DNA of 49,342 bases, filler included, from Jimgerdemannia flammicorona (Eukaryota), in the NCBI GenBank assembly GCA_003990765.1. It is 2 parts of 2 records of this genome, joined end to end, with 100 filler letters (N's around TTAATTAATTAA, not from the genome) between each part and the next. Parts side by side here need not be neighbours in the genome. Positions count along the whole stretch, not along the records: positions 24,723 to 49,342 come from RBNJ01000951.1; 1 more part is not named here. One strand, 5' to 3'. Every line of letters begins with the position of its first letter. The stretch's first letter is position 1. Below, piece by piece: positions 2,950-49,342 of the stretch. The position numbers and the translations under genes were made by a program. Below the pieces are notes generated by a model. The model saw only the letters and a list, made by a program, of their open reading frames with translations. It was not told the DNA's origin and made no database searches.

Positions 2950-2961
2950 CCGCTGCTACCA
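2950..2961 (-). promoter_or_regulatory. Primer-binding site, probably tRNA-iMet
   Basis: TGGTAGCAGCGG, 3 nt inside the LTR end; complementary to a tRNA 3' end ...GCTACCA typical of initiator Met tRNA. Confidence 0.8.
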
Positions 2962-13145: not shown

Positions 13146-13159
13146 ACTCTCCCCTTCTT
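13146..13159 (-). promoter_or_regulatory. Polypurine tract
   Basis: AAGAAGGGGAGAGT immediately before the 3' LTR TG; same tract at 30891-30904 in A3. Confidence 0.88.
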
Positions 13160-13355
13160 AGCTTTCAATATCCTCATTGGGGCCTTCTAATTTTGTTCAG
13201 TACTATAGGGAAAATAGGCTTGCTTTCAGTTTTGCCATTTTTTCCAGAGGGTCAGTATTCTTGTCTTGTTTTTTGCTGAGTTCTTGGTTTGCAATAATTA
13301 TAATGTTCGGAAGGATAATATATAGTATGTATGGATAGGTGCAGAGTATTTGGTT

Positions 13356-18487: not shown

Positions 18488-19448
18488 ATTATTTACTAGA
18501 GGTGGTTGGACTACTGGTAGTGGTGTTACTGGTACTACTTGAGGTACTGGTACAGAGTGTGATGGGGTTCTTTGGGTCTGTGTAAGTTGCTGGAGTAGTA
18601 GTTGTGGGTCTGGAGTAAGGGCTTGATAGATAACTGTTTGTTGCTGTATAGGTGTATTCTGTCCTGATGGAGGTACTTCTCCTTTGGTGGTATATCCGGG
18701 ATCAAATTCACTGAGATACTCCTCCTCTTCTTCGGTTTGGTCCTTGTGTAATTGGGTTTGCTTGGCGTCAAAGTAGATAGAATCAGTTGTATATCTGATT
18801 TCAGATGGACTTAATTCAAAGTCAAGTTTAGGTTCGGTATTGGTTTCAGATTCAGGTAGGGCTGTAGCAGAGCCTGCTTCAGGTTCGGAGTCAGGTAGTT
18901 AATGAAGGGTTTCTCTTGCTTCTTTTTTAAGAATATGGTGGGCCTTGCTGTTCTGGAATCGATAGTATAATGTAGTCTTGGTCCTGGTATGGTGAAAATC
19001 AGTAGAGTTGAGCCACTTGGCTACAGAGGCTTGGGCTTCGTGAGAAACTAAGGCTAGAAAGACTGCTGCTGGTTGTCCTAGGTTACTCGGGTTTGTGGAG
19101 CTGACAAAACTCTTATTGAGAAGAGTAAAGAAGGTTTCAATAAGACCTTCTTCATCTTGACTTGCTGGATGTAGTGCAAGAAGTTCAGTGAATAGAGTTT
19201 TGCCTATTTGCTAGTTTAACCGGAGTACTTCTTTCTTTGAATGAAGTTTATCCCACTTGTTGCAGATGTGGAAGTCAAATTGTCCTTATACATCAGATTC
19301 AATTTTCTCCAGATTGTCAGATGGTTCAGATAAATTCCAGTTCAGAGGTTGGGCTTTATACCAACTTATAGAAATTCGCAGAGGGGTTTGTAGCAGGGTG
19401 AGAAAGCATCTTGAAGTGGAATTGGATTGTAAACCACTGCTACCAAGT

Positions 19449-21493
19449 TGTAAGAGAGTTGCTTTTTAGGGTAACTGTTATGTAGTTCTGGAAAGGTTTT
19501 CTAGATATTCTGAATATTCTGGATATTCTGGAAGACTGTTTTCTTATGGTCAAGATCAATTTTGTATAGAGTACATCCTCTATGCTTATTGATTTCAAGA
19601 TCAGGTTGACATCTCAACCAAAGTCCTTTTTTTTTTTAGACTAGTTCTGAATGTTCAGGATTTTTCATATTTCAGGAAGTTCAAGAAACTAAGACCAGCT
19701 TAGTTGAATTGGCATATCACTGCAGACAATACCCAATTAGGAAATTTCATGATATGGTTAGGAGTGAGACCTAATGGGGAGCAGATTTACTTAAGAGTAG
19801 TTTGTGGGTTATTTAATAGATTTATTCGCTATTCATGATATTGCTATACTAGGAGTAGTTATGTAAAGGGATATTGTGGGGAAGTATTCAGGAATGTTCT
19901 TGTATATTCAAGTCTGAGATTCTGAGGTCTGGGGAAGGGGGTATTTATACTAGTGAGGGGCTATCTGGACTATACTGAATATAGATGTAGTACTAAGTGC
20001 TTTGCTGAGTTGGAATATAGTTATATAGTATAAGTGTGATCTGATATATCAAGAGATCATCTGACTGCTAAGTCAGTTCACAGTCATGTCATACAAGACT
20101 AATCTAACTATACTATGACTGCTAGGCTATTTATAGGTTTAGGCACTATCTGGGTAGTCTTCAATGATATCACCATCAATTGCATCATCTCTGATGAAGT
20201 AGTTGTCTAGGAAGAGTGGTTCGTGGATTACTTCTCCTTGTTTACTGAGGTAATAATACATTGGAACTTCATTACCATCCCACAGAATAGCATCATCTGT
20301 CTCATATGCTGGATAAGGTGTTGGTGGGTAAAGGAGGGGTGCATCATCTTCACTTTTATTAAATTTGCTGTCTGCATATCTTCTATAGGTTACAGTACTA
20401 TGAGTCACAGAGTTGTAGTAAGCTGGTGGCTGTAGTTCATGTTGCTCATACTCAGGTGGTGGAGTGGTTGGTTCAATCTCGAGGGTTGTCTGGAGGTACA
20501 GGTCGTGTTCTCTGGTCTCTTCATTGTAGTTGAAGTAATCGGGAGTGAATGCAGATTGGTATTCGTACCAGTGGTCATTGTCCCAATAAGTCTTGTATGC
20601 TGTTATGAATTGTTGTAAGTTCATTGGCAAGGTTGGCAGTGTGATCAGGGTTGGCAGAGATCCTTGGCTAGAGGTCATGTCGGTGTCAGAGAGATTATTG
20701 TCTTCTGCTTTATCTTCATCGAAGTAGATTATATCGTAGATATCCTTCATGGTGTATCCAACTTGGGGCATTTGCAGGATATGATCATTGGGGTGTGGAA
20801 AGGTTCTATCTGTGGTTTTGACATACTCGAGGTACTTGTGGTTGAGTTCTTGTATTATGTCGTCGATTTGGCCATAAGATAGAGTAGCAATCATTTCAGC
20901 TGTGGTAACTTGGAGGCAGGAAATAATGGTGCTATACTCATAGAAGAGTCCTCGATATTTGTGGGCAATGAGCTTCTGGTGTTGAGACATCTGGATAATG
21001 TCTGTATCATGGTGGTGTTTGATCATGTCTTCCAGGAGGCAGCTGATCTGGTAGTAGCTTGAGATTTGTCCAATTCAGTGGGCCTCACTAAGCATGTTCA
21101 GAGCATTCCATTGGGCTTCCATGAAGTAGAGGGGTGCTAGGCTATGGATATTCATGAGGGGCAGAGGGGGTGTGGCTTTGTTGACAATAGCATTCCAAAT
21201 GTCAGCGCAGATATGGATATAGATCTCAGTAGTCATGTTTGTGTGTTTGGAAGTTATAGTTGTTGTTTGTTTTAGTTCTCTAATTTGATGTGTCTCAGTA
21301 CTCGGTATATATGCATTTGATCCTGATTGGTAAGATTCCGTTTGTGTAAATCTTATGTTCTGTGACTTCATATTGACTCAGCTTCATGATCAAGCAGGTG
21401 ATTTCCAGATTTGTTCAGAGATTGTGTGTAATTTCAGTGGCTTGTTCAGAGGGTGACATGTAATTTCAGTGGCTTAGAGATTGTGTGCTTACA
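19449..21493 (-). repeat. 5' LTR of A2
   Basis: TGTAAG at 19449, CTTACA at 21493; PBS TGGTAGCAGTGG adjacent. Confidence 0.95.
20139..21371 (-). pseudogene. Second copy of the U3-encoded acidic protein (one stop at 21075)
   Basis: ORFs 21075..21371 and 20139..21026 are in one frame and align along their length to 3713-4867. Confidence 0.75.
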
Positions 21494-22379
21494 GTAGTGG
21501 ATAGTGATTCTTGATAGTGAGTTTGTTGAGTACATGATAGTCTATGTACATTCACAGAGTACTATCCTTCTTCTTGATGAATAAGACTAGTGAGCCATAA
21601 GAAGATTTGCTTGGTTGGATGACTTCTTATGCAAGTAGTTCTTCTAGTTCCTTCTTGACTGCTTTAATTTTGAGTGGTGACATGCAGTACATATGTTTCT
21701 TGAATGATACAGCTCCTGGGGTCAGTTTAATTTCATAATCAATTTCTCATATAGGTGGTAGATCAGATTACTTATCTGGAAAGACATCCTTGAACTTTTC
21801 TAGCAGTAGCTTGATGCTTTCATTGACTGATAGTCTCTTGTTTTATTTTTTGGGGCAGATCATTATAATAAAGGCATGCATTGTCTTCTTGAGTGCTTTC
21901 TTATACTATATAGCTGACAGTGTTGCAATCTGGATCTTACTCATAGTCTTGTCTATCTTGATCATAATATTGGCTCCATCTTAAAGTTAGGTGACTTCAT
22001 TCTTATACCAATCAATGTCTGGGTTGTACTTTATAAGTCAGAGTTTTCCTAGAATCAGGTTATGATCTCCTAGTAGTATAATCTTGAAGTCTACTTGTTT
22101 CCAATATTTCTGGATCTTGATGGGCAGTTTGGTGGCAATTGACTTGATGGGGTATAGAGTACTGTCTGTAGTAACTATACTATTGTTCTTGGGTATAGGC
22201 TTGGTGAGGATCTTGAGGCTTTCAATGAGATTCTGATTGATGAAGTTCTCTGCAGCTCCACTGTCTATGAGTACTTGAACTTCTCTTCCTTTGACTAGAC
22301 CTTTGAAAATGAGTATAGCTTGAGCTTGATTTTCACTAAGACTTGCTGCTTGATCAGTGCTGTCAAAACTCTTTTGATC

Positions 22380-22760
22380 TCATTTGGTTTCAGAGAGTTC
22401 TTGGACTTCTGTAATCTTGAGTTAACTGGCTTTTTCTAGGATCATTTGTGTGACTCAGTCTCCTTCTTTAACTATGTAGTCTTAATCCTTCTGATTGATA
22501 AGCAAGACTTAAACTTGTCCTCAAAAGTCTGGATCAATGATACCAGTACCTACATCTAAATGATATTTGACACTGAGTCCTAATCATAGTATAATTCTAG
22601 CATAATGTTCTTTAGAGCATTGAACTGCAATTCCAGTAGGCATTAGAGTATAGCTCTTGGCTGGAATAGTGACTTGTTTGACTGAGTGTAGGTCAAGACC
22701 AATGGCTCCTTCTGTTTGATATTAAGAGACCTGGGCCTTCAGATAAAGCTTCTTGACCTT
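22380..22760 (-). pseudogene. dUTPase domain of Gypsy B
   Basis: AIGLDLHS, TGIAVQ, LGLSVK, GIIDPDF*GQV, GD*VTQMIL; lies between the Zn knuckle and the protease. Confidence 0.85.
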
Positions 22761-23827
22761 AAGCTCAAGTTGACTGATAGTAGAATTGATAGGTGTGTTC
22801 TTAGACAATATAGTGACTGGTCTTGAGGATTTGCTAGTCTTTTTAGGACATTTGGTTGCAATGTATCCTATTTGGTGACAGAAGAAACAGGCTCTAGATT
22901 TCTTCAGGTGGTCCTTTTCTTCAGAAGTAAGCTTAGTGTTCTTTTTGTTTATAGTATCTAAGTCCATTAGTGCTGGACCAACTGTTCTTGGTTGGTTTCT
23001 GTGATAGTTCTCAAAGTGGTTCTTCTTGTGGTATTCTGGTTTGAAGTAGTTACCAAAGGTGATAATATCAAATCTATCAGCAATTCTCATGGCTTCATTA
23101 AGAGTTTTGAGTTCTTCTAGCTCAACCTTAACTTGTATATTTCCCTTCAGACCTCAGACATAGCAGTCTATCTTTTTATCCTCAGATACTGCTGGTAGCT
23201 CAAGTAGAATTGATAAGAATTGTACATTATAGCTTTATACAGACTTGAGTTACTTAATGTTTGCTAGCTTGTCCCTGGCTAGCTTAATAGTATTAGCAGA
23301 CTTGAACTGCTTGTGAAGGGCTCTCTTAAAAGCTTTCCAATCTCTGATTTGTATATATAAGTATACAGATGTAACCATGATATGGTTGTACTACTAAATA
23401 GCTGTATTTCCTCAGAGAAGTATGGTAGCAAATTGAACTTACATATTATCTTCTATTCTTGTAAGCTCGAAGTATTGATTCAACTGGAAGGTCCATATAT
23501 CTATAGATAGTCCTCCTTAATGACCATCAAAGGTATCTGGCTTGAGTAACTTAAAACTAACTAGTGCTATAGCAGAATGTGATCTTATAGTTTGTATTTT
23601 CTGATGTTCTAGTTGTACTTGAAGTTCTTGAATTTGGTAGGCTATAGCATTGATCATATCTTCTATATTGAGCTATGATCCTCTTGCTTCTTTTATAGCA
23701 GAGGGGTCTGGCTGATAGACTGACTCTTTATAGCTTATTTCAGGTTTGTATTACTAGTTGTGACTGGTTTCTGAATTCATATAAGGTTTCTTAATAAGGC
23801 AAGATGTAACCACTCACTGCTACTAAG

Positions 23828-24622: not shown

Positions 24623-24722
24623 NNNNNNNNNNNNNNNNNNNNNNNNNNNNNNNNNNNNNNNNNNNNTTAATTAATTAANNNNNNNNNNNNNNNNNNNNNN
24701 NNNNNNNNNNNNNNNNNNNNNN
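24623..24722. other. Assembly gap: 44 N + TTAATTAATTAA six-frame stop linker + 44 N
   Basis: Directly visible. Confidence 0.98.
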
Positions 24723-24726
24723 CGCA

Positions 24727-25736
24727 CCAATCAAAAGGCCCCACCGAAGCAGCACCTGCCCCAGCCCCGACGACCGCCCCCAGCCTGGCACCCTACTGGT
24801 TCACCGTTATCGCCCTTCTGCCTATCTGTGACGGCCATCTCCCCTCCCAACCCGACAACACCCGAAAAGCAGTCACCTACGCCAGAACCGCGCTCGCCGG
24901 GAAGCTCGCCAAAGCCAGAGGGCCCCACCACAGGCACCGAGGACCTGCAGGTAACCTACACTGAGCACTTGACGCCCAAGGTCGGCCGACTCCCTACGTA
25001 GCCCGAGACACACCGAGACAACACCTTGTTGGCGACGGCAAAAGGAAGAAGGCACCGCACCAAAACGGGTATACCCCAGACGCAGCTGAAGGCACCAGAA
25101 TCCGCGAAAAAGTGGAGGAAGCACCGATCCGACACCGATAAAGGGGCAACTCATCACCATCGCCCTCCTCCCACCATGCCCCTGCAGGCACAGCAAACCA
25201 ACCTGAGGTAGAGGGGGTAATAGTAGGGGAAAGGGGACTCAGAAGGTCGCCTACCAAACCTTGTGACCGGTAAGGTAGCGGAGAAAGGAGCTGAAAGAGG
25301 GCAATGGTGATAAGTTACCTCTTTATCAGTATCAGATCAGTGTCTTCTCCACTTTTTTACAGTTTCTGGTACCTTTGACTGTATCTGGAGTGCATTTGTT
25401 TTAGTATGGTGTCTTCTTTCTTTTGCCATCATCAACAAGGTACTGTCTTGGTATGTTATGGGTTATATAGGGAGTTGGCCAACCTTGGGCATCAAGTGCT
25501 CAGTATAGGTTATCTGCAGATCCTTGGTGCCTGTGGTGGGGCCCTCTGGCTTTGGTGAGCTTCTTGGTAAGTGTGATTCTGATGTAGGTGACTGTTTTTC
25601 AGATATTGTCAGATGGGAGAGGAGATGGCCATCACAGATAGGAGGATGGACAATAACGGTAAATCAGTGGGGTACTAGGCTAAGAGTGGTCATCAGGGCT
25701 GGGGTGGATAATATTTCAGTGGAGTCTTTTGATTGG
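24727..25736. repeat. ~440-bp imperfect inverted repeat (arms 24727-25167 and 25297-25736) of an unclassified element
   Basis: For example GCCAAAGCCAGAGGGCCCCACCACAGGCACC versus GGTGCCTGTGGTGGGGCCCTCTGGCTTTGGT; similarity is continuous over the arms. Confidence 0.92.
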
Positions 25737-26376
25737 CTGGTAGAGGGTGGGGTAGTATAGGGACTGGTGTTCTGGCTGTACCCAACTGGAACTGGGAGCT
25801 GATGTAGCAATGCAATCAAGGCCTGTAGACTTGGGGAGTGGGGCCTTCCTTATTTAGCAGTATCTGACTGGAACCGGGAGCTGACACAGTAACATAATTG
25901 AGGCCTACAAGCTTGGGGAGTGGGAGTGGGGTCTTTTCCAGCCCTAGCCTATGTGTAAGTCCTTTGAGGAAGGTGCTGCATATAAGTCCTTTACTCATCT
26001 ACTTTGAATCTACTTTGCTCTTTGTTGGTTAGTTGAGGGGTTTTTTCTTTGCCTCAGGCTTTCTTTTGGAGTTTGGGGGGCTATTCTTTATTCAGTCCTA
26101 GTACTGCTAGATCTGATGCATAGGTGTGCTCTCACATGTAAATGATGATCCAGTCCTGGTGAGCAGACAAGTCTAGTATATGTCATGGAGTTGATGTAGC
26201 CAGTGTTTGACAGGTATAGCTGAAGCAGTGGGACTGCTGGACAATTTAGTAGCCTAGGTTAATGGGAGATATTGTTCAGTAAGTGGTGGGAGAGAGTTTT
26301 GGCCTATATAGTCTAGATTCTCTTCTAATAAAAATCTGCAGGACTATGAGTCTATTAAAAAAAAAAAAAAAAAAAA

Positions 26377-29300
26377 GACTAACCAGACAGCATCTAAATC
26401 TATAATAGCTTAGCAGTCATAGTATAGTTAGATTAGCCTTGTATGATGTGACTATAAACTGACTCAGCAGTCAGACAATCTCTTAATATATTAGATTATA
26501 CTTATACTACATAACTATATTCTGACTCAGCAAGGCACTAAGTAGTACTTCCAACAAATTGAATCAAATCGAATTTGGCCCAAACTCGATTCAATTCGAT
26601 TGAATCAAGGGTCCAATTTGATTCGATTCAAATTGAATAAAGGTCCAATTCAATTTGAAGTTTGATTCAAACCTTAATTTTCAAAATATAATAACTCGAT
26701 GAAAACTCATCCAAATTTAACATATTTTAGCTTGTTAGATTCACCGTATTAATGTGATTCTAACAAGCTAAAGTACGTTAGATTTGGATGAGGTTTTGCT
26801 GAGTTATTGCATTTTGAAAATTAGGATTCGAATCAGACCCTCAATTCGATTTGACTTTTGATTCAATTTGAATTGATTCGAATTGAAAAATCCCCAATTT
26901 GATTCGACTTGTTTAACCCTCAATTCGATTTGATTCCAATTGATTTGACTTGTTTGGGAGCACTAGCACTAAGTACTATATTCATATTCAGCATAGCTCA
27001 GATAGTCCCTCACTAGTATAAATACCCCCTCCCCCAGACCTTAAAATCTCAGACTTGAAGACTTGAACAATTTGAACACAACTCCTGAGCACTTCCCCAC
27101 AATATCCCTTTATACAACTATTTCTAATATAGTAATATTATGAATAGCAAATAAACCTATTTAATAACTCACAAATTACTCTTAAGTAAATCCACTCTCC
27201 ATTAGGTCCCACTCCTAACCCTATCATGAAATTTCCTAATTGGGTATTGTCTGCAGCAATATGCAAATTCAACTGAGCTGGTCTTAGTTTCTTAAACTTT
27301 CTGAAATATGGAAAATCCTGAACATTCAGAACTAGTTCAAAAAGAGACTTTAGTTGAGATGTTAACCCAATCTTGAAATCAATAAGTATAGAGAACATAC
27401 TCCATATGAAATTGATCTTGACCTTAAGAAAATGGTCTTTTAGAATATTCTGAACTTTCAGAAAACCCTTCCAGAATTATATAATGGTTACCCTAATAAG
27501 TAACCCTCTTATAACTTAGTAGCAGCAGTTTACAATTCAATTCCACTTCAAGATACTTCCTCACCCTACTACAAACCCCTCTGAGAATTCCTATAAGTTG
27601 ATATAAAGCCCAACCTCTGAACTGGAATTTATCCTGAACTATCTGACAATCTGGAGAGAATTGAACCTGATATATAAGGACAATTTGACCTCCACACCTG
27701 CAACAAGTGGGACAAACTTCATTCAAAGAAAGAAGTACTCTGATTAAATCAGCAGATAGGCAAAACTCTATTCATTGAACTCCTTGCCCTACACCCTATA
27801 AGTTAAGATAAAGAAGGTCTTATAGAAGCCTTCTTTACTCTTCTCAACAAGAGTTTTGTCAGCTCCACAAATCTAAGCAACCTAGAACAACCAGTAGCAG
27901 TCTTTCTAGTCTTAGTTTCTCATGAAGCCCAAGCCTCTATAGCCAAGTGGCTCAACTCTACTGACTTTTACCATACCAGGACCAAGACCACATTATATTA
28001 CTGATTCTAGAATAGTAAGGCCTGCCATATTCTTAAGGAAGAAGTAAGAGAAACCCTTTATCAATAACCTAACCCTGAACTAGAAGCAGGCCCTACTATA
28101 GCTCTACCTGAACCTGAAACCAATACTGAACCAGAACTTGACTTTGAATTAAGTCCATCTGAAATCAGATATACAACTGACTCTGTCTATTTTGATGCCA
28201 AGCAAACCCAACTATACAGGGACCAAGCTGAAGAGAAGGAGGAGTATCTCAGTAAATTCAATCCTAGATATACCACTAAAGGAGATATATCTCCATCAGG
28301 ACAGAATACACCTATACAGCAATAGACAGCTATCTATCAAGCCCTTACTTCAGACCCACAACTATTACTCCAGCAACTTATACAGACTTAAAGAATACCC
28401 TCATACTCTGCACCAGAACCTCAAGTAGTACTAGTAACATTATTACCAGTAGTCCAACTGCCTCTAGCAAACAATATGGCAAACTAACAGATTCTAGATC
28501 TTATAGCCCAGGTAGCAATAATGGTGGCAACCATTACTACCTTAGTTGAACAGATCTGACCTACCAAAAATCTGAGCCTATCTATCTTCAATAGTACTGC
28601 ACAAGAAGTCCAAAGCTTCATTAGTGTAGTTAATATCAACTTTGAAGCCAATTAATGACCAATGAGTAAGTTGCTGACTGTCTTCTAACAAACAATCAAG
28701 ACTATGCTCTGAAACAACTCTTTGCTACTACTATGGCCTATGTCCACCAAGTTGTTATATTCTTCTAAGGACCTACTAAAGAATGGTGGCGAACCCTTCC
28801 TGAAAAATCTCTCACATGGGACACCCAACCTGCAGTAGTTGCTCAGAATGCAGTGAATAATACTCCAGGATATAGAGCCCATCCTGCAGCCCCTGGACTG
28901 AAATAACTCATAATTGCTCAATACTATAGTGAAACCATAATTGCTAAATCTCAAGTAAAACTCCACAACCTCAAATTTGATATATATGGCAAGAAAGAAT
29001 TTGAAACCTTCTGTACAAAACTTGAGTCACTTCTGAACACCATTGGTCTAGAATATATTGCCAATGACAAAGCATGAAATGGTACAAGAGCAGACCATCT
29101 ATTTGATGCACTACCTGAATGGCTTATAAGAAAAATCTGAGAACAAGGACACCTAGTTGGTTGTAACCACCAACAATAGTGCCTGATAAGAATCAAGACT
29201 ATGGTCAAGTGAATCCTAACAGCTGGACCAATTCTGCCCTGAAGACAATTCAATAACAAGGAAAAGACTTAGACTAAGAAAGAAGAACCCAAGCATGAAG

Positions 29301-32300
29301 CATCCTGAGCTCCCTCAACATCCACCTCATGAACACTCAGAAATCATAAACCTACTCAGCCAAGTACCTTCAAGAAACTCACTGAAGGAGAAAGAAATGA
29401 ACTTTGAAGAAGTGGAGTATGCTTCTATTGCTGAAAGACAGGACATATGACCAGTACCTGTCCGAACTGAAAACCCTGAACAGCAATATGAGCAACTGTT
29501 ACTACCCTGCACCATCTCAATAACCTGATCACCAGAACACTGAACTTTATCAAGTTAAGACAAACTGCTAAGGCCCCAAGCAAAGGAAGTCAAAAGGCAG
29601 CTGGATATGACCTGTATGCAGCTGAAGAAGCTATAGTTTCCAACCAAGAAGTTAAGCAAGTCTATACAGGAATCAGTATCCAAATTCCTGAAGGACATAT
29701 TGGAAAAATATACTATTGCAGCAGCTTAGTATTGAAAGGACTCTCAGTAGAAAGAGGAGTCATTAATAAAGATTATACAGGTGAAATTATTGTTCTCATC
29801 CAAAACCATAGTTGGACACTCTTCAAAATTCCCATTGATTTCTATATTACTCAGATCCTATTTGAGAAAATTAAATCAACTCTGATAGTCAAGGAAGTCC
29901 CTAAACTACTACCTACTATCTGAGGATCCAAAGGATTTGGCTTATCAAGCAAGGCCTCAGCCCAACCTACTATGAACAAAGAAGAACAATTCTATAAGAA
30001 AATCAAAGATGGATATGTACCAAGTGGCCAATATCTCATGGCATTGAAATATACTCTTTTCAAATAATTGACAATTGCTTCTCTTATATCAATTAACTGG
30101 CTCAAAGAAGAACCAACAGAAGAAAAGCTCCTACAACTGAAATCACTACCATTGGATCAGACAAACTGCTTACACTTTAAGCTTTTGTCAACTGAGCATC
30201 TGTCAAGATTATGATAGACAGTGGTACCTCAGGCAACTTCATCAATAAAGAAACAGCCAACAGACTCAAGGTCTTTATCTCTCTGATACAACAAACTCAA
30301 GCAGTTGTTACAGCTGATAGAATCTCACATATTATTAGCAAGGAAGTCTGCAACCTACTCTTCCAAATTAGTGACTACTGAATATATGTTACTCTCTAGA
30401 TCATACCACTTTCTGACAATGAAATCATCCTTGAGACTCCATGGTTAAAACAAGAGAACCCCATGATTAATTGGGTAAACCATTCTCTGACCATTAAGAA
30501 AGAATATCACAACTTCAAACTGTAAGATGAAAAGGACCCACTCAGCTCTAGTGATTCTGAATTAAAGATCACTCACATCAACAAGCTACAGCTCAAAAAA
30601 TTGGCCAAGAAATGTCCTCTCTTTGCTATCTCTATCTGTCCATCCAAAGAAGAACCCGAGATCTCTAAAAAAGACTTTTCCAAAGTTGACAGCTGTGTTA
30701 GACCTCTACTCCAGAAAGTCCAAGACATATTTCTGAACTGAACTACAGAACCACCTGCACCTGTCATTATTAATGACCAAGAAGAATACAAAGTTGAATA
30801 AATCCTCAACAAATACAGCCACAAGAACTATCCAAATAGTACAACAATACTAGATCAAATTAGAAGGTCTCAATGAAGATGTCAAAAGCTAAGAAGGGGA
30901 GAGTTATAAGTACACAATCTCTAAGTTACCAAAATCACATATTATCCTCAGAACTAATTTGGAAACCATATGCAAGACTACAAAATAAGTTACTGAAGAG
31001 ATCATCTGATTACACAAAATATGTCAGCAAGTATGAGAACCTACTGCCAAGATACAAGAATACCAGAAGAAGTACTACAACTGTAAGACTAACTCTGAAC
31101 CTCTATAACTAGTTTAGTATACTGTACTATTACAAAAGAAAACTGAAAGTACCAAAATCAAACCAAGATAAGAAGAACCCTATCTTATCCATCAAAGGGC
31201 ACTTATCAACTTAAGATCAAAATATACTGCAACTATATAAGATCTCATTATTTAGCAAAAGTAAAATATATTTGAACAACTCTATTCGCTCTATCTGTGT
31301 CATCTCTGTTAGAGAGTGATGGATGCTTCATCTAAACTCAAGAAAGTCAACATTATTGAAACTAATCTCAAGCTATCCACGTGATAGATATTACTACTAG
31401 AAATTGTCTCAGATTATAGAAAATATCATTTCCAAGAGGTTTGAATTCCCAGCCATAATATTAAAAGCCCTTGCCCTAGACAAGAATGGCCAGTCCTCAC
31501 AAATATATCAGAAGTTTAAAAAAAAAAGAGAACCAAGACCTGTTATTCTTATACAACTACTGCCACCAAGGACAGTCTTAATCTTGCAAGAGATAGAAGT
31601 GACAATATCTTTAAAACTGATGATATCAGAAGTCAGAAAATTGCTCAGACTTTATCAGAGATAATGTTATCAATAGTGATGTTATTAAAGACTAACCAGA
31701 TAGTATCTAAATCTATAAATAGCTTAGCAGTTATAGTATAGTTAGATTAGTCTTATATGATATAACTGTGAACTAACTCAGCAATCAGACAATCCCTTAA
31801 CATATTAGATCACACTTATACTATATGACTGCATTCTGACTCAGTAAGGCACTAAGTACTATATTCATATTCAGCATAGCTCAGATAGCCCCTTACTAGT
31901 ATAAATACCCCCTCCCCCAGACCTTAGAATCTCAGACTTGAAGACTTGAATAATCTGAACACAACTTCTGAGCACTTCCCCACAATATCCCTTCACACAA
32001 CTACTCTTAGTATAGTAATATCATGAATAGCGAATAAACCTATTTAATAACCCACAAACCACTCTTAAGTAAATCTACTCCCCATTAGGTCCTACTCCTA
32101 ACCCTATCATGAAATTTCCTAATTAGATATTGTCTACAGTAATATACCAATTCAACTGAGCTGGTCTTAGTTTCTTGAACTTCCTGAAATATAGAAAATC
32201 CTGAATATCCAGAACTAGTCCAAAAAGGGACTTTGGTTGAAATATTAACCCAATCTTGAAATTAATAAGCATAGAGGATATACTCTATATGAAATTGATC

Positions 32301-32396
32301 TTGACCTTAAGAAAATGGTCTTCCAGAATATTCTGAACTTCTAGAAAACTCTTCTAGAACTATATAATGGTCACTCTAACAAGTAACCCTCTTACA
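26377..32396 (+). mobile_element. Gypsy family A copy A3: truncated 5' LTR (to 27513), gag-dUTPase-PR (28476-~30500), RT/RH/IN deleted, 3' LTR 30905-32396
   Basis: Reverse-complement homology to 1-3730; junction from the RT start to EPPAPVIIND at ~30740; PPT; CTTACA end. Confidence 0.92.
26543..26965. mobile_element. hAT-type MITE / foldback element inserted in the A3 5' LTR
   Basis: 8-bp TSD GCACTAAG (26535-26542, 26966-26973); TIRs TAGTACTTCCAACAAA / TTGTTTGGGAGCACTA; empty site at ~31849. Confidence 0.92.
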
Positions 32397-32644
32397 AAAG
32401 CCCAAGAAGGGTATGTTAAGTACTAGCAAATAGTGATTTTTGAGATAGAAATAGGTCAGGAACAAAATCTTTCCAATGATTAATATCACTTTATATATAT
32501 ACTATAAATTTTGTAAAAAAATTATCTAAAACAAATAAAATTCATATTATATATATAAAGCCCAGATGCTGCTTTATTAAATAAAATATAGAGTATAATT
32601 ATATTCATATTTAGACCATAATATATTGTCTCTTATTATATATT

Positions 32645-33110
32645 TATTAAGATCTCCTTTACTATCTTTTCTTTATCATCTTTATACCTTTTGCTATCTT
32701 TAACTCATTTATTATTTTCTATTTATTATTTTTAATCTGTTTACTATCTTCTCTTTGCTATTTTTAACTTATTCTTTACTGAGATCTCCTTTGCTGTCTT
32801 TTCTTTACCATTTACCATCTTTGACCTATTTGCCATCTTCTATTTACTGTCTTTAACTCATTTACCATTACTGTCTTTAACTTATTCACTATTACTATCT
32901 TTAACTCATTCACTATCTTTAACTTATTTGCTATCTTTGTCTCATTCACTATCTTTTCTTTGCTGTCTTCACTAAGATTCTCTTTTTTATCTTCTCTTCA
33001 CTGTCTTTAACTTGTTTATCATCTTTACTAAGATTCTCTTTATTGTCTTTCTGTCTTTATATCCTTTACTATCTTCAATTAATCTTACTATCTTCTCTTT
33101 ACCATTTATT
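32645..33110. repeat. Degenerate pyrimidine-rich minisatellite (TTTACTATCTT / ACTGAGATCTC-type units)
   Basis: Many recurring ctttactatcttt and tttgctatctt motifs. Confidence 0.85.
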
Positions 33111-34129
33111 AATATACTATAATTAAAGAGAAAACAATATATTATTAATATTGAAAAGATAAGAAAAGCTTATAATAAAATATATTGAACAGATACAGAT
33201 ATAGAAATAACAAAAGATATTGAAGAGTAGAATGAGATCTTTACTGAGAGTGAGAGTGAGAGTGAGAATGAGAATGAATCAGATGAGAAGAATGAGTAGA
33301 GTGAGCTTTTGACTAAGATGTAGTCTATTGAATCTGAAGAAAAATCTCATCTACATATAGCTTATACTAGTTCATCTCAGATATTAAAATATTATTAAAA
33401 ATTATATATAAAAGAATTAGAAAGAGCTACTATAGGAATATATGATATTACTTTATTCTTTCAAAGAACTATTATTGCAGAAACTACAGATACTATAGAG
33501 ACTATATTTGATGAGAAATTAATAGTTGAAAAAAAGATAATAGATGAAATTAAGGAATATCTTAGTAATATAAAATCTATTAGTACTGAAGAAAAAGTCA
33601 AACTATAAGCTATTCTTCAATATCTATATCTACATCAAACAGAAATAATAAAAGATAATATAAGTTTATAGATTGCTACTGCTAATGATAAAACAAAATA
33701 CTGAGTATATTATCTTATAAGCTGAACCAAAGAATGGAAAGCTAATGGAAAGATTAAATTATCATATAGAGAAAAGCATCCAAAAACTAAAAATCTATTA
33801 ACTGAAAATAATATCAATTTGACTCTTAGCTCTTAGTTATGTAGTTATAAGTTTGATATTACTTCTCAAACTCTCTAAAAGTATATCAATAAAATCATTC
33901 TTCCAAACATTAGTATTTTGAATAAGAAAAAATATATCAGTAGGAAAACTGCATCTAGATGGCTATTAGCTCTTGGATAGACTCATTTAGAACAAAAAAA
34001 GATATTTTGATAGTTATAAGAGAGAAGATATTGTTACATATTACTAAAAAATTTTGAAGTAAATAAAGATATATATGAGAGATATATAATTAGAGCAGAT
34101 TTTGCTTTATTTTTAGAAAAGGTATCTAT

Positions 34130-35400
34130 ATCTATATTATCAAAGGTTCTATCTTCAGATTCCTCCTTCTCTTTATCTATATCTGTATTATTGCTAAAGA
34201 CTTTATCTTTGAGGGCTTTATTATGAATTTCTATGCTGAAGGCTTCATTATCTACATTGTTGCCAAAGGCTCTATCTTTGGAGACTTTATTACAAATTCC
34301 TATGCTGAAGACTTTACTATCTATATTATTACCAAAAGCTCCACCTTTAGGACTTTGTTATGAATTTCTACACCAAAGGCTTCTTTATCTATATTATTGC
34401 TGAAGACTCTATCTTTGGAGGCTTTATTATAAATTTCTGTCTCATTATTCATATCTATATTGTTGCCAAAGACTTCATTATCTATATTATTACCAAAGGC
34501 TCTATCTTTGAAAGCTTTATTATGAATTTCCATGCCAAAGGCTTCTTTATCTGTATTATTGTCAAAGACTCTATCTTTAGAAGCTTTATTATGAATTTCT
34601 GTACTGAAGGCTTCTTTATCTATATTATAAATTTCTACTCTATCATCTGTATCTACATTATCACTAAAGACTTCATCATCTATATAAATTTCTATACCAA
34701 AGACTTTTTTATCTATATTATTACTGAAGACTCTATCTTAGGAGACTTTATTATGAATTTCTATACTGAAGACTTCTTTATCTATATTATAAATTTCCAT
34801 CCTATTATCTGTATCTATATTATTACCAAAGGCTCTATTTTCAGAGACTTTATTACAAATATTTATACTAAAGACTTCTTTGTCTACATTATTGTCAAAA
34901 GCTCTATCTTTAGAGGCTTTATTACAAATTTTTACATCAAAGACTTCTTTATCTGTATTATGAATTTCTACTCTATCATCTGCATCTATATTGTTATCAA
35001 AGACTTTATCATCTATATAAATTTCTATATCAAAGACTTCTTTATCTATATTATTGCTGAAGGCTCTATCTTCTAGAGCTTTATTATAAATTTCTGCACT
35101 GAAGACTTCTTCATCTATATTATAAATTTCCACTCTATCATCTATATCCACATTATTACTGAAAGTTTCATTAGCTATATTTGAAGGCTCTATCTTTGGA
35201 GGTTTTATTATGAATTTCTATGCCAAAGGCTTTTTTATCTACATTATGAATTTCTGCCCCATTATCTATATCCATATTATCACTAAAGACTTTATTGTCT
35301 GCTCTATCTTCAGGAGCTTCATTATGAATTACTACCTTATTATTATCTATATCATCATTCACATCATCATCCACATTATCTTCAGAAGATTCTGAGGCTC
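34130..35400. repeat. Degenerate ~66-bp/composite tandem array inside the transposase; minus strand reads NNIDKEVF.IEIHNKASKDRAF repeats
   Basis: Recurring ctctatcttt..gctttattatgaatttc..aaagacttctttatctatattatt; ORFs 34738..35151 and 34321..34533. Confidence 0.88.
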
Positions 35401-36429: not shown

Positions 36430-37550
36430 GACTCTTTCTCTTCACTGTTTTTCCTTTGTTATTTTCTCTTTGCTATCTTTACCCTCTTTACTATCTTCTC
36501 TTTGCTATCTTTATCATATTTACTATCTTACCAAGATCTCTCTTTATTATCTTTCTTTTACTATCTTTACTATATTTACTATTTTTACTGAGATTTCCCT
36601 TCATTATATTCCCTTTGCTATCTTTACTATATTTGCTATTTTTATTAAGATCCTTTTTACCCTTTGCTATCTTACTAAGATTCCTCTTTACTATCTTTTC
36701 TTACTATTTCACCAAGATCTCTTATCTTTATTATCTTTATTATATTTACTACCTTTGCCATATTTGCCCTTCACTGTCTTCCTTTTTTACTATTTTTATC
36801 TAAGATCCCTCTTTACTATCTTTTCTTACCATCTCACTAAGATCCCCTTTGTTATCTTTTTTTTACTAACTTTACCACCTTTACTATCTTTGCCCTTCAT
36901 CATCTTTGCCCTTCACTATCTTTCTCCTTTACTATTTTCTCTCTTTACTATCTTTCTCTTTACTATCTTCTCTCTTTGCCATCTTCTCTTCACTATCTTT
37001 ACCATATTTTCTATCTTATGCCATTTTACTAAAATTCTTCTTTGCTGTCTTCTTTTTACTATCTTTATCATATTTGTCATCTTTTTCCTTTACCATCTTT
37101 ATCATGTTTCCTATTTTACCAAGATCCTCTTTTGTTATCTTTCCTTTGCTATCTTTACTATGTTCATTGTCTTTATTAAGATTTCCCTTCTCTATCTTCT
37201 CTTTATCATCTTTACCTTATTTATCATCTTTACTAAGATCCTTTACAGTCTTTATCTCTTTGCTATCTTTACTCCCTTCTCTATCTTCTCTTTGCTATCT
37301 TCTCTTTGCCATCTTCTCTTTGCTGTCTTTACCTCCTTCACTGTCTTTACCCTATTTATCAACTTTACTGAGATCTCTTTTTACTATATTCTCTTTGTCA
37401 TCTTCTCTTCACTGTCTACTTTCTTCACTATCTTTCTCCTTCACCACCTTTACCTCTTTACTATCTTTCCTTCACTATATTTACCTCCTTCACTATCTCC
37501 ATCTTTACTGAGATCTCTATCTACTTATCTGAAAATCTTTATTATCTTTA
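36430..37550. repeat. Degenerate pyrimidine-rich minisatellite, same unit family as 32645-33110
   Basis: Recurring tttactatctt, ctctttgctatc and actaagatcc motifs. Confidence 0.88.
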
Positions 37551-37896
37551 TAAAAACACTTGAAAATTTGATATAATTTGGTACAAAGCTTTATATACTA
37601 AATATGAATGGATTTACAAAATTATATTAAGTTTAAATATATATTTGTCAAGTTTTTTAGAGTGATAGCTTTTCTTCAATTCTCAATTTTTCCTGATATA
37701 TATATATGAAAAGTGAAGAATAGAACTTTATATTTTGGTATCTAAATAAAAAAAGGACTTCATAATTTTGTAGATAAATAACTAGAAAACAAAAGTATGA
37801 AGCAAGTTTGTTAATATTTTTTGTTGTTCTGAAGTTCTATTCTTTTAAAAATCTTTCAAAAAATTTATTGAGACTAGATGTTCAATACTGTATGAC

Positions 37897-40800
37897 TTTT
37901 TTTTTTTTTTTTATATAGTCTCTTAGACTTCTTCCTTTATTAATATATCTATTTATCCTATATATAATATATTGAGCTTACTCCTATCTGATCTCCCTAG
38001 AGGGACCTCTCTCCCCCCACACTCTCTTGATTAAAGACCACTAGGTCATTAATTACCTCCACCTACCCACTACTATGTTTACAAATCTCTTCCATCAGAT
38101 GGCAGTAATGCCTATCCTAGGGATCTTATCTAATTCACCACTCTGTCAGTATATCTCCCATCAACCCCTCTCATCTTAACAACCTCTTCTATAAACCCAG
38201 CTATTACCCCTCCTTAAAAATAAAGAGCCAATGTTCAGCCAGCCCTACCTATATAGCTAAAATCCACTCTACAGTAAGCCATTCATTACTCACCCCTCCC
38301 ACCAACCTAGTTTGCAAATCTTTCCAGCAATCTCTCCCCCCATCTGGTCTTCTCTTCACACTCAGCTAGTCTTCTACTATTATCCAAAAGTCTCCCAGAA
38401 CCTCACACTCTCCCAGCTAATGTTCTGGTATCTATATAAATCCCCCAACTTACTCTATATTATAGCACTCCTCACATTCCAGTAGACCACTATCTACCAG
38501 ATGCTCAGTATGAAAATTCAACATAATATTCCTCTGTAGCATCTGCTACTATACTATCCAGTACTTGGAAGGAAGTCATCTTTGTACCTCAGCACTTTAT
38601 ATCCAGACTCCTGTCTAATTCTACTCCTAATCAATCTTCACTGCTTACCAACTACTAGGCCAAAGATCCTGACTGAGTTCTTACTGATACTCTACTCTAT
38701 CATCAATATCAAACTCAATAAGTAGAGTACCCCCCAAAAGTAGTCTATCTCATCTCTATATAGCTGGTCCCCATAGTATCTCTTCTTTATTGCTATATCA
38801 GCACAAGCCTATATAGTGTACTCTATCTGCTATCCCTCACTAGAAGCCTTTATACCATAGCTAATAGCTTCCATCCAGGTCTATCAGAGATAACAAATCT
38901 CCTGAGAACTCTCTTAGAGAGAATCTCATCTTCTACACCTTCTGCATCAGTGATACGCATCTCTTTCCCCTCAGTTCCACAGCCTGCTTCAATCACTAAG
39001 CTCTCAGGCAGTACAGCCTCTTAGGAAAATTCACCAGTCCTAGCTCTCCTCAAACTACTGGCATTGAAAGGGTATCCCAACTAATCTGGGACCACCTCTC
39101 AGCCCAAATCCAATCCCTAGCCAGCTTCATCAGTCTCTTCACCACCCAAGCTAGAAAGTCCAAATAATAGATAATATACTACAGCTTAGAGAACTAGTAG
39201 ATATTCAGAATTGATACCCAGTCTGTCAGGGAGATATAGTGACCTCTCCAACCTCTAAGTACCTCTTCCCAGATGACCACCCTCCTCTCCCACCATACTC
39301 ATGACAAGACAGATCTATATACTGAAAGGAAGATGTCTAGTTATCTTACTGCTTCTCCTGCTGGGACAATTGTTCCAATGATATTCCCTCTCACTAATCC
39401 ATTTTCCAACACCATTGTCTCACACTTATACCAATTGAGTTTTGTTCCAGAGTATGCCTCATACTATTCTACTATCTCTTTAAGAGCCTTAACATCTATC
39501 ACTGATCCAAGTCCAACCACCATATCATCTGCAAAGGCTCTCACCTTCCACACTATACCATAAATAGTGAGCCTTACCACCTTCTACTAAATCCTATCCA
39601 TCAAAGGTTTTAATAAAAGGACATATAAAATAGAAGACAGTAGATCTCCCTGAGGAACTCTTCTCCCCAAGGAAAATGCCATACCTCAGTGACTATTACA
39701 CATCAGTGCTACCCTACTATTCTCTAATAGATTCAACTTAGAAGCTCGAAATAGTAGGGGAACTCCTATTCTGTTCAGTATCTTGCTTAGCCACATCTGC
39801 TGAACATAGTCATAGGTCTTCTCCTGGTCCAAAAAGACCAGTCTCCCATCCAATCTATTAGCCCATGCCCCTTCAATGATGCTATAGACCCAGGCTGTCC
39901 TATCACTGATAAGTCTGCCTCCAACAAAGCTCCACTACTTCTCACCCAATATCTGTTGGGAAATCTTCTGTAATCTGGCTATAATTACCTTAGTAACTAT
40001 CTTCCTATCCATATTCAGAAGCATAATCAGTCTCCAGTTCTTCCAATCCTCTCTCCTCTCCTTATCCTTATACAACAGGGCCACCAGCCCTAGGTTCTGC
40101 TCTCTCACCCACTGACCATTCAGAAGAACAAGATTACAGAGGGCTGTCATCTCTCCTAACACTCTAGAGACCCTCACAATCTTCTTCCAAAAGTTCCAAG
40201 ATAGTCCATCCTCTCCTGATGCTATTCTAAGCTTAGTTACCACAAGAATTCTCTAGATCTCCTCCTTTTGAATCAGTAGGATCAAATTCCCCAGGCTCTT
40301 TACCTATAGCAGCTCTCAATTCTCCAGAGTGTCTCCAATTGTCTCTATATTGGCACTCTCTTCCTCCTCACTCTACAGACCCCTCCACCACTCCTTCAGC
40401 AATCCCAAGATCTGTTGTATACCATATACTATTTTCCCCTCTGCATCAAGAACTCCATCTCATCAATATCATACTCTTTTTTCCTGGAGGAGTCTTGATA
40501 AGTATCTAGTAGGTCTCTCTCTCTCCTCAAGCCCCTGCTACCTCAACCTAGCTATCATTTCTTTTATATGCATCTTCTTCTTCTCTCTCAATACCTATTG
40601 TAACTCTATTACTTTTAGCTTAGCTCACACTAATCTCCAATCATCCATCTCTCCAGAATTTATCAAATCAGCCCATTCTATCTGTAATATAACTAACCTA
40701 TTAGAAGCACACCTTACTCTTTTCCTTCTCTGCCTCCCAGTATCCCTACTAGCTCCTCCCCAGTAAACCCTTGTAGTTTCTTTCAACTTCATCTACCAGA

Positions 40801-43776
40801 CATCTACTTGCAAGCCCTCATGTATCCAGCTTGTGATCTTTACCTGAATGTTCTCTACCCAAGAGTCCAACAATACCTTCTCAGCCAGTAGAGAGAAGTT
40901 AAAGTACTAATATCCAGATTTATCTCCACTCTCCCCAAACTGCCTCTGCCCTAATAATCTCCAGTGATCTAACTATAAACACCACTCTACTTCTAAAGTC
41001 CTCCAAACATCCATGTCTCAGCATTTGGCTGTCAGTATCCAGTCAATCCTTATATCTAAGCCATTCACCCAGTGTATATAAATTCTCTTTTCTCCTACTG
41101 TATTCTGCCTATATCCCCTAAGGAGCTAAGATTCTCTACCTCCTCTCATATATTCAGACTGCCACTCCTTCTACCAGCACTTCTCTCTCTATCAGTTCTA
41201 TCTAACTGAAGATTCTGTACTATATTGAAGTCACCTCTCAGAACATTCATCCTATTCTCTAAGAATGTATCTTCCTCTAAAAGACTCTTAATTCATATAA
41301 TCTGCTCATCTCTAGTCACAGAGTAGTAGTAAGAGCCAACTCTCACTGGCTCTCACTCTGGTTGATACCATTTTCCCCTATACCAAACAGTCTTTCCAGC
41401 TCCTGACTCCACTCAAATTCCCTTTACCCCTCTATACCAAAATCACCACTTTGCCAATCTAAGCTATAGCTCCCCCCTATTCTCTAGTCCACTCTACTTG
41501 ATCTATATCATCCTTGCAATATACATCCTACAGCAGAAAGAGATCAGCCTCCAATCTCTTAAGCCAAGTGAAAATATTCTTATACTACCCAGATCTCCAT
41601 AATCTATTTATATTCAGAGAAAAAATATTAGTTATACTGTTCATTGAGAATAATATTTAGAAGTACAGTCTCTTTACAACTCAGTCCTCCTCTCTTCCCT
41701 TGCTAGATCCATTCCTTGCTTTTCAGTAGACTCTCCCCTTATAAGCTTATTTACTTCTAATCCAGCCAAAAGGTCAGTCAGTTCTACATCCTTCTTCTCT
41801 TCCATTGTATCTCTATACTCCTGGTATATACTCTGCCAGAGTTGAAGTTCTCTCCTCTGTTTCTATCAGAATGCAGCCTATTCTCCTATAGCTACTATCA
41901 ACTCTTTCTCTCTTGCCTTATCAATCTTATATCTCTCCTTTTCTATGAAGATTGCCAATACCTCAACCTTGAGAGCCTCTATCACACTATTGCCCCAAAG
42001 TACTCTTTCTCAATACTCCTCACTGACAACTCTCAAGTCCATCTCATCTAACTCCTCTGCTACCAAGTTGTACATAATGTGATACATCTACCATAGGTCT
42101 CCAACATCTTTTCCTCTAGAAGTATCTGGCCTTCTCATACCCAGCATAGAGGTATTAATCTCTATACTAGCAGTTTCTTCTCACTTGCCATCAGAGACAT
42201 CCACTACTTATTCTTCTGAGATTCTACTATCCATCCTTTTATTGCTATATTGGGGACCCCAAATCTGACCCTATGTATATTCTTTATCTCAACATTCTCA
42301 CTACCTTGTATCTTTCCAGGACCAGCTGGTATCTTACTATCCTCATCATTCTCAAAGATCTCTAGCATACTATCATTATACATATCTGATCCCTAGCTCT
42401 CCTTACTGTCTATATATCTATCTTCTTCAGTTTCTTACTTCTACTAGCCCAGTTACTTGCCTTCATCCTCTCTATCACCCCTGCTTCACTCAATATCTTA
42501 ACAGTACTTTTCTTTATACTAGCCAATAGCTCTCTCTCTACTTCATCTCTTGGGCCCTCTCCCACTATCTCTTATCTATCTGGACATTTTTCCCCTCTAT
42601 TACCTCTAGATATATCAAATCTATATAGGCCTTCCAAGCTTTTACCTGATATTTCACTGCTTCTCCAAGTTTCTCTAATACTTTTGAAAGGTTCTTCTTC
42701 TCCTCCTTACTCCTCTTCATCCTCAAATCTTATAGATAAAAGTTCCCCACAGTATTACCAAAGACTAGTCACTCATCTTCCCAGTGGCCTCTTTTCCAGC
42801 CAGCTAAATCCTGATATCAACATCTCTAGTTCTAAAAGTAGTCTCCTCCTATATCTGGAATCTAATATCTACCACATTATCATACTCTGCCATTACCTCT
42901 TCAAACCTCCTCCTAGTCTCCATGCTCATCACTATAGGCACCCTCTTCACCAGTAGCTAAACCACTCTGGGGTCCCACCTCAAGCACTGCACTATGGAGA
43001 CCACTACCTCTCCTATAGTCACTCTAGTCTTCAATGCTTTCTCCAGTAGGCCTGCTTTCTCAAAACCCACTTCCACTCTCTCCAATTCCTTCAGGAACTT
43101 CACTGAGATAGCTCCTACCACTTGCTTTGAGATAATCCCCAGGACCATCCTTGCTGTCACCACCAGGTCTCAGAAGCACAAGGTCATAGCAAACTTTGAG
43201 GTCAATTTCTTAAGTAATGGTACCACTGTCAGCCCTGTTACACCATTGGCCAGGTCTCTCTTCCTCTTTGGTCCCAACAGTCTGGCTCTACTATCAACCA
43301 TCATATCTGGATTTTTTTCCAGATTCCCAGTCATACCACTATCAGCAGTCTCTCCCCTACTTCTAGCTACCACTCCACCAGCCCTTCCACTCACTGGCTG
43401 AGGTACTGCCCCTCCTGCTTCTCCTTCCCTCTACTTTCTCTTCCCCTCTGCCTAACTACTATGAGATCCAACAGGCCATCCTCCATCCTTCAGCATATCT
43501 GCAAAGCTCCTCCCCTTCTGCCCTCCTGCTCCTCCCCCAGTGCTGCTACTACTACCTAAACTGCCCTGCCCACTTGGACCTCTGAAAGACCCCATCTCTA
43601 ATCCATACTCTCATCTAATATATTGCCAGTCAAAGGCTCCAGGTCCACCCAACCTAGTACACATGTCAGCTTGCTTGTTGGTTGCCATGACCTTAGTACC
43701 TTTCTCCAATAAATGCTTTGAAAGTGTGTTGTAAAAGTGTGTGTAATGTGAATGGTAACTGAGAAAGGTTGCTGGC
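37897..43776 (-). mobile_element. Full-length decayed L1/Tx1-like LINE (ORF1 ~43600-41660, ORF2 41643-~38000, poly(A))
   Basis: Poly(T) from 37897; TSD ACTGTATGAC at 37887-37896 and 43777-43786; MNSITNIFSLN start; NWRLIMLLNMDRKI, QGDLLS and FADD. Confidence 0.93.
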
Positions 43777-43866
43777 ACTGTATGACCACCAGACAGTCTC
43801 TCCGCTCACCGTGACGTGTTCATCTTCTCTCTCAGCCACCCCCTTGATACACAAAACAACACAACC

Positions 43867-49012: not shown

Positions 49013-49342
49013 GAATGGCAAGGCAGATAGGAAGGAGAAAGGGAATAAAGGAGAAAAGGACAGGCTGATTCCATTATAAGAGTCATTATGACGTAATGCC
49101 CACATTATGCCGTAAGGTCGGCTCTCTGCATGAGCGCCTAACGCCACTAATTAATTAAGCATCATGAAACACCCAAATTTTTTCTGCACTGTCAGGACTC
49201 TCGCTCAAGGACAGCTGGCAAGGATTAAAGTAGGGAGATTAAGGTAGGTAAAGCGCCAGGTAGGCTTACAAGGGTCGGCGGACGCTATACAAGTACAACT
49301 GGTAAGGACCAAGGTAGGTGGGTTAAGGTAGGTAGAAAAAAA

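Follow-up and report, generated by a model that had tools for sequence, protein, structure and literature searches.

In the betaretrovirus MMTV, the sag gene is an ORF inside the U3 of the LTR, and in lentiviruses the nef gene begins before the polypurine tract and extends into the 3' U3. For soybean, a process of "LTR swapping" is said to have been reported by Du et al. in 2010. In the Solanaceae copia elements Tnt1, Retrolyc1, and Retrosol, the coding sequence is conserved and the subfamilies Tnt1A, Tnt1B, and Tnt1C differ by their U3, a pattern that has been termed modular evolution, with the variability targeted to the U3 (PMC1838419). As far as that account goes, the U3 of the Tnt1 superfamily is regulatory and non-coding, and its variants consist of short repeats and indels. 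Recombination in reverse transcription between related elements has been found to generate mosaic LTR retrotransposons (PMC6894440), and in bdelloid rotifers, related LTR retrotransposons carry varied 3' ORF3s, which has been read as modular structure and gene sharing (PMC5408684).

The element analysed here, A3, appears to most resemble the modular U3 subfamilies Tnt1A, Tnt1B, and Tnt1C. The coding region and the R-U5 part are conserved between A3 and two other copies of its family, A1 and A2, and the U3 cannot be aligned. LTR subfamilies that differ in their U3 are already well known, but there the U3 is regulatory DNA, and here the replaced interval is a whole protein gene that is kept by the sister copies. 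Unlike in Tnt1, a 412-codon gene makes up one U3 variant and an unrelated 660-bp block the other, and the element is of the Ty3/gypsy type and resides in a fungus-like genome.

The retrotransposon family and the ORF in its U3

The window, i.e. the whole stretch of DNA of 49,342 nucleotides from Jimgerdemannia flammicorona that was analysed, harbours one LTR retrotransposon family in three copies: A1 (1-5068, minus strand), which is cut by the window start, A2 (11104-21493, minus strand), and A3 (26374-32397, plus strand). A pair of long terminal repeats, which start with TGTAAG and end with TTACA, flanks the internal region, and domains of a gag zinc knuckle, a dUTPase, an RT, and an RNase H are present in the family. 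Pfam matches were obtained to zf-CCHC (the gag zinc knuckle, E 1.4e-4), dUTPase (E 6.2e-22), and RT_RNaseH_2 (E 9.2e-30), which identifies the family as Ty3/gypsy elements with a dUTPase; the integrase and the chromodomain were read by eye and not by a domain scan. Gypsy elements with a dUTPase have been described from fungi (PMC2864245).

The LTRs of A2 (5' LTR at 19446-21493, 2048 bp, and 3' LTR at 11104-13145, 2042 bp, both on the minus strand) are 91% identical, and the 5' LTR of A1 (2962-5068, minus strand) has 2107 bp. A 32-bp duplication near the 5' end of the LTR is present in A2 and absent from A1. The division of these LTRs into U3, R, and U5 is a putative one. In the 5' LTR of A2, the U3 holds an ORF of 412 codons at 20139-21377 with one internal stop, and in A1 this ORF lies at 3713-4951, again with one internal stop that is at a different position than in A2; the copy in the 3' LTR of A2 is more decayed. 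The ORF matches no Pfam family, and a search among 5.8 billion protein clusters recovered one relative, P0002, which is intact, has 247 aa, and is 61% identical (E 2e-96), and none of 28 pattern matches of the A1 protein in IMG/VR was confirmed. A sense ORF thus lies wholly in the U3 of A1/A2 and its protein is conserved in a relative, as expected for an accessory gene that is borne by the LTR, and to judge from the intact relative P0002, this ORF is evidently a real gene. A few bases past the stop of the ORF follows the motif TATAAATA (31714-31721 in A3, plus strand), which the alignment finds conserved in 5 of 5 LTR copies and which presumably is the core promoter (TATA box).

An unrelated block in the 3' LTR of A3

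The 3' LTR of A3 (30905-32397, plus strand) has only 1493 bp. It begins with TATAAG, where A1/A2 have TGTAAG, ends with CTCTTACA, and is adjoined upstream by the polypurine tract AAGAAGGGGAGAG (30891-30903, plus strand), which is common to A2. Its first ~80 bp (30905-30985, plus strand) are the LTR 5' terminus shared with the other copies, in the form of A1, i.e. without the 32-bp duplication of A2. Then follows an A3-specific block of ~660 bp (~30986-31647, plus strand) with 41% A and 33% G+C, before the LTR rejoins the family sequence with the last 18 codons of the A1/A2 U3 ORF (DFIRDNVINSDVIKD*PDSI; 31648-31705, plus strand). Four codons before the old stop, both LTRs of A3 have a TAA (GACTAACCAG) in place of the TAC of A1/A2. 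The block stands in for ~1.2 kb of A1/A2 that begin ahead of the ORF's ATG and stop short of its last 18 codons, and the flanks of the block are 84-87% identical to A1/A2. A run of ten A is found inside the block at 31519-31528.

In BLASTN comparisons of the 3' LTR of A3 with A1/A2, homology was detected only at 30857-30954 and 31649-32397, and the left match reaches ~30985 when the alignment tolerates transitions. The 120-nt tile at 30905-31024 gave z values of 13-18 against A1/A2, in contrast to 0.4-1.5 for the next tile, and an extension of the left homology to 31092, in which an ATG falls opposite the start codon of A1/A2, was dropped because of these latter values. Inside the block (~30986-31647), the 120-nt tiles had no similarity to the DNA of A1/A2 (z -0.9 to 2.9), the stretch just upstream of the rejoin was matched or beaten in its score by 17-48 of 200 shuffles, and a tblastn search with the A1/A2 U3 ORF found only its last 18 codons in the A3 LTR (E 2.7e-5). 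That the block diverged gradually from the A1/A2 ORF can be dismissed, as a transition-tolerant local alignment of the whole block reached a z of ~2 that comes from the two edges only. The block also is without a counterpart in the rest of the window, where on both strands the best score was 135.5, as compared to 120.6 +/- 9.9 and a maximum of 139 for shuffles.

In the genes, A3 is as close to A1/A2 as these are to each other. Over gag to protease, the transversions amount to 1.09% (35/3216) for A3-A2, 1.32% (39/2959) for A3-A1, and 1.05% (31/2961) for A1-A2, and in the shared part of the LTR they are at 1.5-2.2% for A3 versus A1/A2 and at 1.2% for A1 versus A2. With such closeness, and with flanks that are still 84-87% identical, a drift that became unalignable over 660 bp is not feasible, and the block is thus a replacement within one family. 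The comparison agrees well with the original prediction, in which the 5' end and the 3' part of the A3 LTR were said to match A1/A2, with breakpoints at ~30965 and ~31645 that only slightly differ from the ~30985 and ~31648 found here, and in which the middle was described as unrelated and about 550 bp shorter, in line with the 1493 bp as compared to 2042/2048 bp in A2 and with a block that has no match to A1/A2. It also had been assumed that the subfamilies share gag-pol and promoter, and gag to protease as well as the part from the putative promoter through R and U5 are indeed shared, with internal transversions of 1.1-1.3% versus 1.05%.

A3 is an old and damaged copy

The internal region of A3 (27515-30904, plus strand) still comprises gag, dUTPase, protease, and a tail of pol, and is 87% identical to A1/A2. 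A deletion at ~30728-30733 removed RT, RNase H, and integrase, and a second deletion of ~254 nt lies before the polypurine tract. Of the 5' LTR, a remnant is left at 26374-27514 (plus strand), the first base of which is the equivalent of 31687. This remnant starts right behind a run of ~21 A that is preceded by AATAAA, its junction sequence has no second copy upstream, and it is interrupted by a palindromic insertion of ~420 bp (26545-26965). As the part equivalent to the block is missing from the 5' LTR, the second LTR of the element cannot confirm the block.

In a three-way alignment of 2959 columns, 243 changes are private to A3, and 188 of these are C>T or G>A. Such changes have affected 16 of 28 CpG sites (57%) and 101 of 417 CpA sites (24%), and the excess of C>T and G>A, commonest at CpG and CpA, marks A3 as an old copy that decayed by deamination. 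The genuine gag-dUTPase-protease part of A3 has accumulated 27 stops in 704 aligned codons, which is ~10 per 262 codons.

Reading frames across the block

A stop-riddled frame from the ATG at 31021, running in phase into the terminal codons of the A1/A2 ORF, had been taken as the relic of a gene. The phase is correctly given, since phase 1 applies to ATG 31021 as well as to the terminal codons (GAC at 31648), but as a relic of an ORF the frame (31021-31695, plus strand) fails, because its 20 stops in ~231 codons correspond to chance (19.4 +/- 4.1 in dinucleotide-preserving shuffles). To be in phase is a 1-in-3 event, and the agreement between the ATG and the terminal codons therefore means no more than chance. 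In a codon-usage score that was trained on the family's own genes, this frame reached -46.2.

A different frame of the block, in phase 0, is a candidate for a decayed ORF of ~263 codons (30873-31664, plus strand). It starts upstream of the polypurine tract with ATG 30873 (a second ATG is at 30879), crosses the tract, and ends with TAA 31662, 50 nt before the putative TATA box, in another phase than the terminal codons shared with A1/A2. It contains four internal stops (31110, 31212, 31317, and 31398), as compared to 19.4 +/- 4.1 expected ones, and 0 of 1000 shuffles had four or fewer stops in any of the six frames; the next-best frame of the block has 14. As the genuine genes of A3 have ~10 stops per 262 codons, four stops are well within the range of a decayed gene of the age of A3. 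Stop-poor frames are also present in the satellite arrays of the window. The codon-usage score of the phase 0 frame is -11.4, in comparison to +34 for gag of A3, +28 for dUTPase of A3, and +27 to +32 for the A1/A2 U3 ORF, with a score that is imperfect, as an AT-rich control (33000-33660) reached +33.5.

The read-through translation of the phase 0 frame, with X at the four stops, found 0 families in Pfam, 0 matches among 5.8 billion clusters in the range of 138-440 aa, and 0 matches among 1.84 billion representatives (phmmer). The real gene of A2 found only one relative in such searches, which indicates that the protein databases are thin for this organism. In contrast to the U3 of A1/A2, the block offers no sense ORF that lies wholly in the U3 and has relatives, as phase 1 is random and phase 0 starts outside of the LTR and found 0 relatives. 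The block may be a decayed ORF in phase 0, which is somewhat less likely than not, and it would otherwise be a non-coding U3.

Copies of the block in soil metagenomes

Contigs of four soil-metagenome runs (X1 to X4) from two studies were aligned to 30600-32500 at a likeness of at least 80%, and depth was obtained in 29, 26, 28, and 22 of the 30 bins of this region; bin 32456-32500 had no cover, and some block bins were empty in X2 and X4. Among those listed, the contigs are of 109-242 nt and 80-99% alike, and no copy number can be read from their summed depth. Of the sampled words of 30728-32397, three runs contained a share of 0.06-0.12 and the fourth run, which belongs to one of the same studies, next to none. 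As even the best run has only 0.12 of the sampled words of the locus, the contigs are other copies and not the A3 locus itself.

At listed sites inside the block, another base is carried by 5 to 18 distinct contigs of X1. Among the listed contig differences, T>C and A>G predominate, in agreement with the copy in the window being the decayed one. All listed contig indels inside the block have a length of 1 nt, and 106 nt are skipped at one joint. Two contigs bridge the left junction and extend more than 31 letters to either side of it, X1 record 1 (30913-31052, 19 differences) and X4 record 25 (30885-31020, 16 differences). The right junction has no bridging contig among those listed, where X3 record 22 runs through the block and ends at 31653, 6 letters past it. 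These runs also contain loose ends that read as the A1/A2 type, namely ahead of 31649 (X2 and X4) and past 30939 (X2). Both U3 types are represented by many diverged short contigs in four runs from two studies, which comprise no full LTRs or insertion sites.

The block is thus a repeated and diverged sequence, attached in other copies to the same LTR start, and it coexists with the other U3 type. One of the cases that had been named as fatal to the original prediction, a block in single copy, does not apply in view of the many diverged block contigs in runs from two studies. Of 216 pattern matches of the translated block in JGI metagenome contigs, 0 were confirmed, and a 22-nt LTR motif had 0 matches in these contigs. 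An IMG/VR contig (L001) that was matched by an 18-nt motif was a chance match, as it had no BLASTN similarity to the window.

How the block may have entered the LTR

The A3 LTR probably represents a second LTR subfamily, in which the central U3 was replaced by the unrelated block of ~660 bp and the replacement was then propagated. The replacement would have arisen once, by recombination, and retrotransposition would then have propagated the block. Both daughter LTRs receive their U3 from the 3' U3 in reverse transcription, so that one recombinant RNA-to-DNA event is enough to fix a new U3 in a lineage. The most likely route would be a reverse transcriptase that switched between two co-packaged RNAs with common flanking stretches; the capture of a foreign RNA would be another route. 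The breakpoints seem to lie at the inner edges of those parts that are needed in cis, which would be the ~80-bp 5' end by the polypurine tract on the one side and the promoter-proximal stretch, the TATA box, R, and U5 on the other side. Such positions would fit to a template switch, and they would fit to a capture of foreign RNA as well. The 18 codons that were kept are more plausibly explained as promoter-proximal sequence, or as the homology at which the switch took place, than as the tail of a shared protein. What speaks against propagation is that the 5' LTR of A3 lacks the relevant part, so that a passage of the block through reverse transcription is not seen in the element itself, and no donor for the block was found in the DNA of the window, in Pfam, or in the two large protein searches.

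It has also been considered that the U3 is a slot for alternative, fast-evolving protein genes that are exchanged repeatedly, perhaps in conflict with the host, and that A3 carries a second accessory gene. In A1/A2, this slot does hold a real gene (412 codons, interrupted by a single stop in each of the two copies), one frame of the A3 block is conspicuously poor in stops and terminates 50 nt before the putative TATA box, and both U3 types are found in the same metagenomes, but the frame from ATG 31021 is random by its stop count, and the stop-poor frame is off-phase with the terminal codons, lacks the codon usage of the family, and found 0 relatives. As only two U3 types have been seen in the window and the soil-metagenome contigs together, and as no frame of the block found any relative, the hypervariable U3 gene of the original prediction, exchanged between subfamilies, is not borne out, a repeated exchange is unlikely, and the cargo slot or arms-race locus to which the U3 had been likened is conjectural. 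It is also doubtful that two forms of the family carry unrelated accessory genes in the same U3 interval, by which the U3 would be an exchangeable gene slot between the cis-acting ends of the LTR. The two products would in this case be an acidic protein of 412 residues encoded wholly in the LTR and a protein of ~263 codons that extends from upstream of the polypurine tract to the putative TATA box, and such a pair appears rather unlikely.

A one-off accident, in which the U3 ORF was deleted and other repeat or filler DNA was inserted after integration and never propagated, would go along with the other damage in A3, i.e. the deletion from RT to integrase, the ~254-nt deletion, the truncated 5' LTR, and the nested palindromic insertion, and also with the single occurrence of the block in the window. 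Such an accident is quite unlikely in view of the diverged block contigs from two studies, of which two join the LTR start exactly as in A3 and which, with 0.12 as the largest share of the words of the locus, do not stem from the A3 locus. Cellular transcripts can be captured by retroelements, as is known from oncogene capture and from maize Bs1, and a piece of a host mRNA that was captured during reverse transcription could account for one stop-poor frame with a codon usage unlike that of the element's own genes as well as for the A10 run at 31519-31528, but a search of 1.84 billion representatives with the decayed copy yielded 0 protein relatives, and this origin is regarded as very unlikely. 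That the A3 LTR is a mere chimaera, assembled from collapsed repeats, can hardly be assumed: the window is dense in repeats and has two runs of N (24623-24666 and 24679-24722), but there is no N in or near the LTR, the left junction is repeated by independent contigs, and one contig runs through the block to 31653.

Relation to other systems

The formation of a second LTR subfamily, as favoured here, would be similar to the recombination that, in the cases covered by PMC6894440, links gag-pol and LTR parts from different lineages and has its breakpoints where the sequences are homologous. In contrast to the recombinants of that account, the process is here deduced from a single product, and no donor lineage was found. 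The ORF3s of bdelloid rotifers, as far as they are described in PMC5408684, belong to recognisable families (env-like, GDSL, DEDDy) and are positioned between pol and the LTR, whereas the block has no family and lies inside the LTR.

The ORF of A1/A2 is placed like sag of MMTV, as a sense ORF wholly inside the U3 and therefore carried by every LTR, but there is no sequence relationship, and the A3 type has lost the ORF and has a candidate frame that starts outside of the LTR. The topology of this candidate phase 0 frame, with an ATG before the polypurine tract and an end in the U3 before the promoter, would be that of lentiviral nef, again without sequence similarity and with a frame in A3 that is a candidate only. 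If the block should be such a second gene, this family would provide a natural example of a retrotransposon that exchanges accessory genes.

The metagenome contigs indicate that the ORF-less variant nevertheless spread, and this suggests that the U3 gene of A1/A2 is not needed in cis for the family to multiply. The comparison of the two U3 types also marks out which parts of the 2 kb of the LTR are indispensable, namely the first ~80 bp and all that follows from a point ~65 bp before the putative TATA box.

Reading frame and decay of the family A copies

Just 5' of the polypurine tract, an ATG is common to A2 (13146-13260) and A3 (30861-30904), two copies of the dUTPase-bearing Ty3/gypsy family A, and the peptides that start from it begin with MRILKAKKGRV... 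in A2 and MKMSKAKKGRV... in A3. In A2 this frame ends within the LTR after 38 codons; in A3 it continues through the block of about 660 bp (approximately 30986-31647) that lies in the 3' LTR in place of the A1/A2 U3 ORF.

The dominant decay changes in the A3 internal region (27515-30904) are C>T and G>A, and the same holds for A1 and A2. Sorted by context, decay rates in the A3 lineage are 57% for CpG, 24% for CpA, 15% for CpC and 6% for CpT, a mixed signature that is both methylation-like and RIP-like.

Rearrangements in and near the LTRs

Exactly at the start of the A3 5' LTR, which is equivalent to position 31687 of the 3' LTR, there is an AATAAA and, behind it, a stretch of about 21 A (26330-26378). 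Motif and tail resemble the 3' terminus of a poly-A retroposon, which would have cut the LTR short or divided it in two; the upstream part that the LTR lacks is absent from the window. The same LTR also carries an insertion of about 420 bp (26545-26965) that contains a long palindrome (26614-26885, self-complementarity 78%) and is flanked on both sides by the 10-bp duplication GCACTAAGTA, which occurs only once in the A3 3' LTR; the insertion looks like a MITE-type DNA transposon. Close to their starts (about 13050-13085 and 21400-21435), both A2 LTRs contain a direct duplication of 32 bp (CCTCTGAACAA...) that is absent from the LTRs of A1 and A3. Upstream of A3 there are two stretches of N, each 44 bases long (24623-24666 and 24679-24722), and after them comes an inverted repeat rich in G+C (24847-25167 and 25297-25617) with 79% complementarity.

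Genomic surroundings

The three family A copies are surrounded by RNase H, gag and protease pieces from further gypsy-type elements, at 10170-10478 and 22038-23153, both on the minus strand, and at 38000-43000, and the region is therefore a nest of retrotransposons. Two long G+C-rich ORFs look like host genes: one on the plus strand (43786-45303) encodes a protein with BTB/POZ and SPRY domains (E 6e-21 and 5e-7), the other on the minus strand (46925-49150) a protein of 741 aa whose F-box-like match is weak and does not reach the Pfam cut-off.

AT-rich tandem arrays at 34164-35300 and 36500-37289, spaced at 69/162 bp and 588 bp, are probably satellite DNA, and they contain long stop-free frames such as 36431-37576 (381 codons). 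Also AT-rich is 33000-33660, which in one frame scores +33.5 on the codon-usage test trained on retrotransposon genes, and this score is a false positive or else marks a coding relic that has gone unrecognised.
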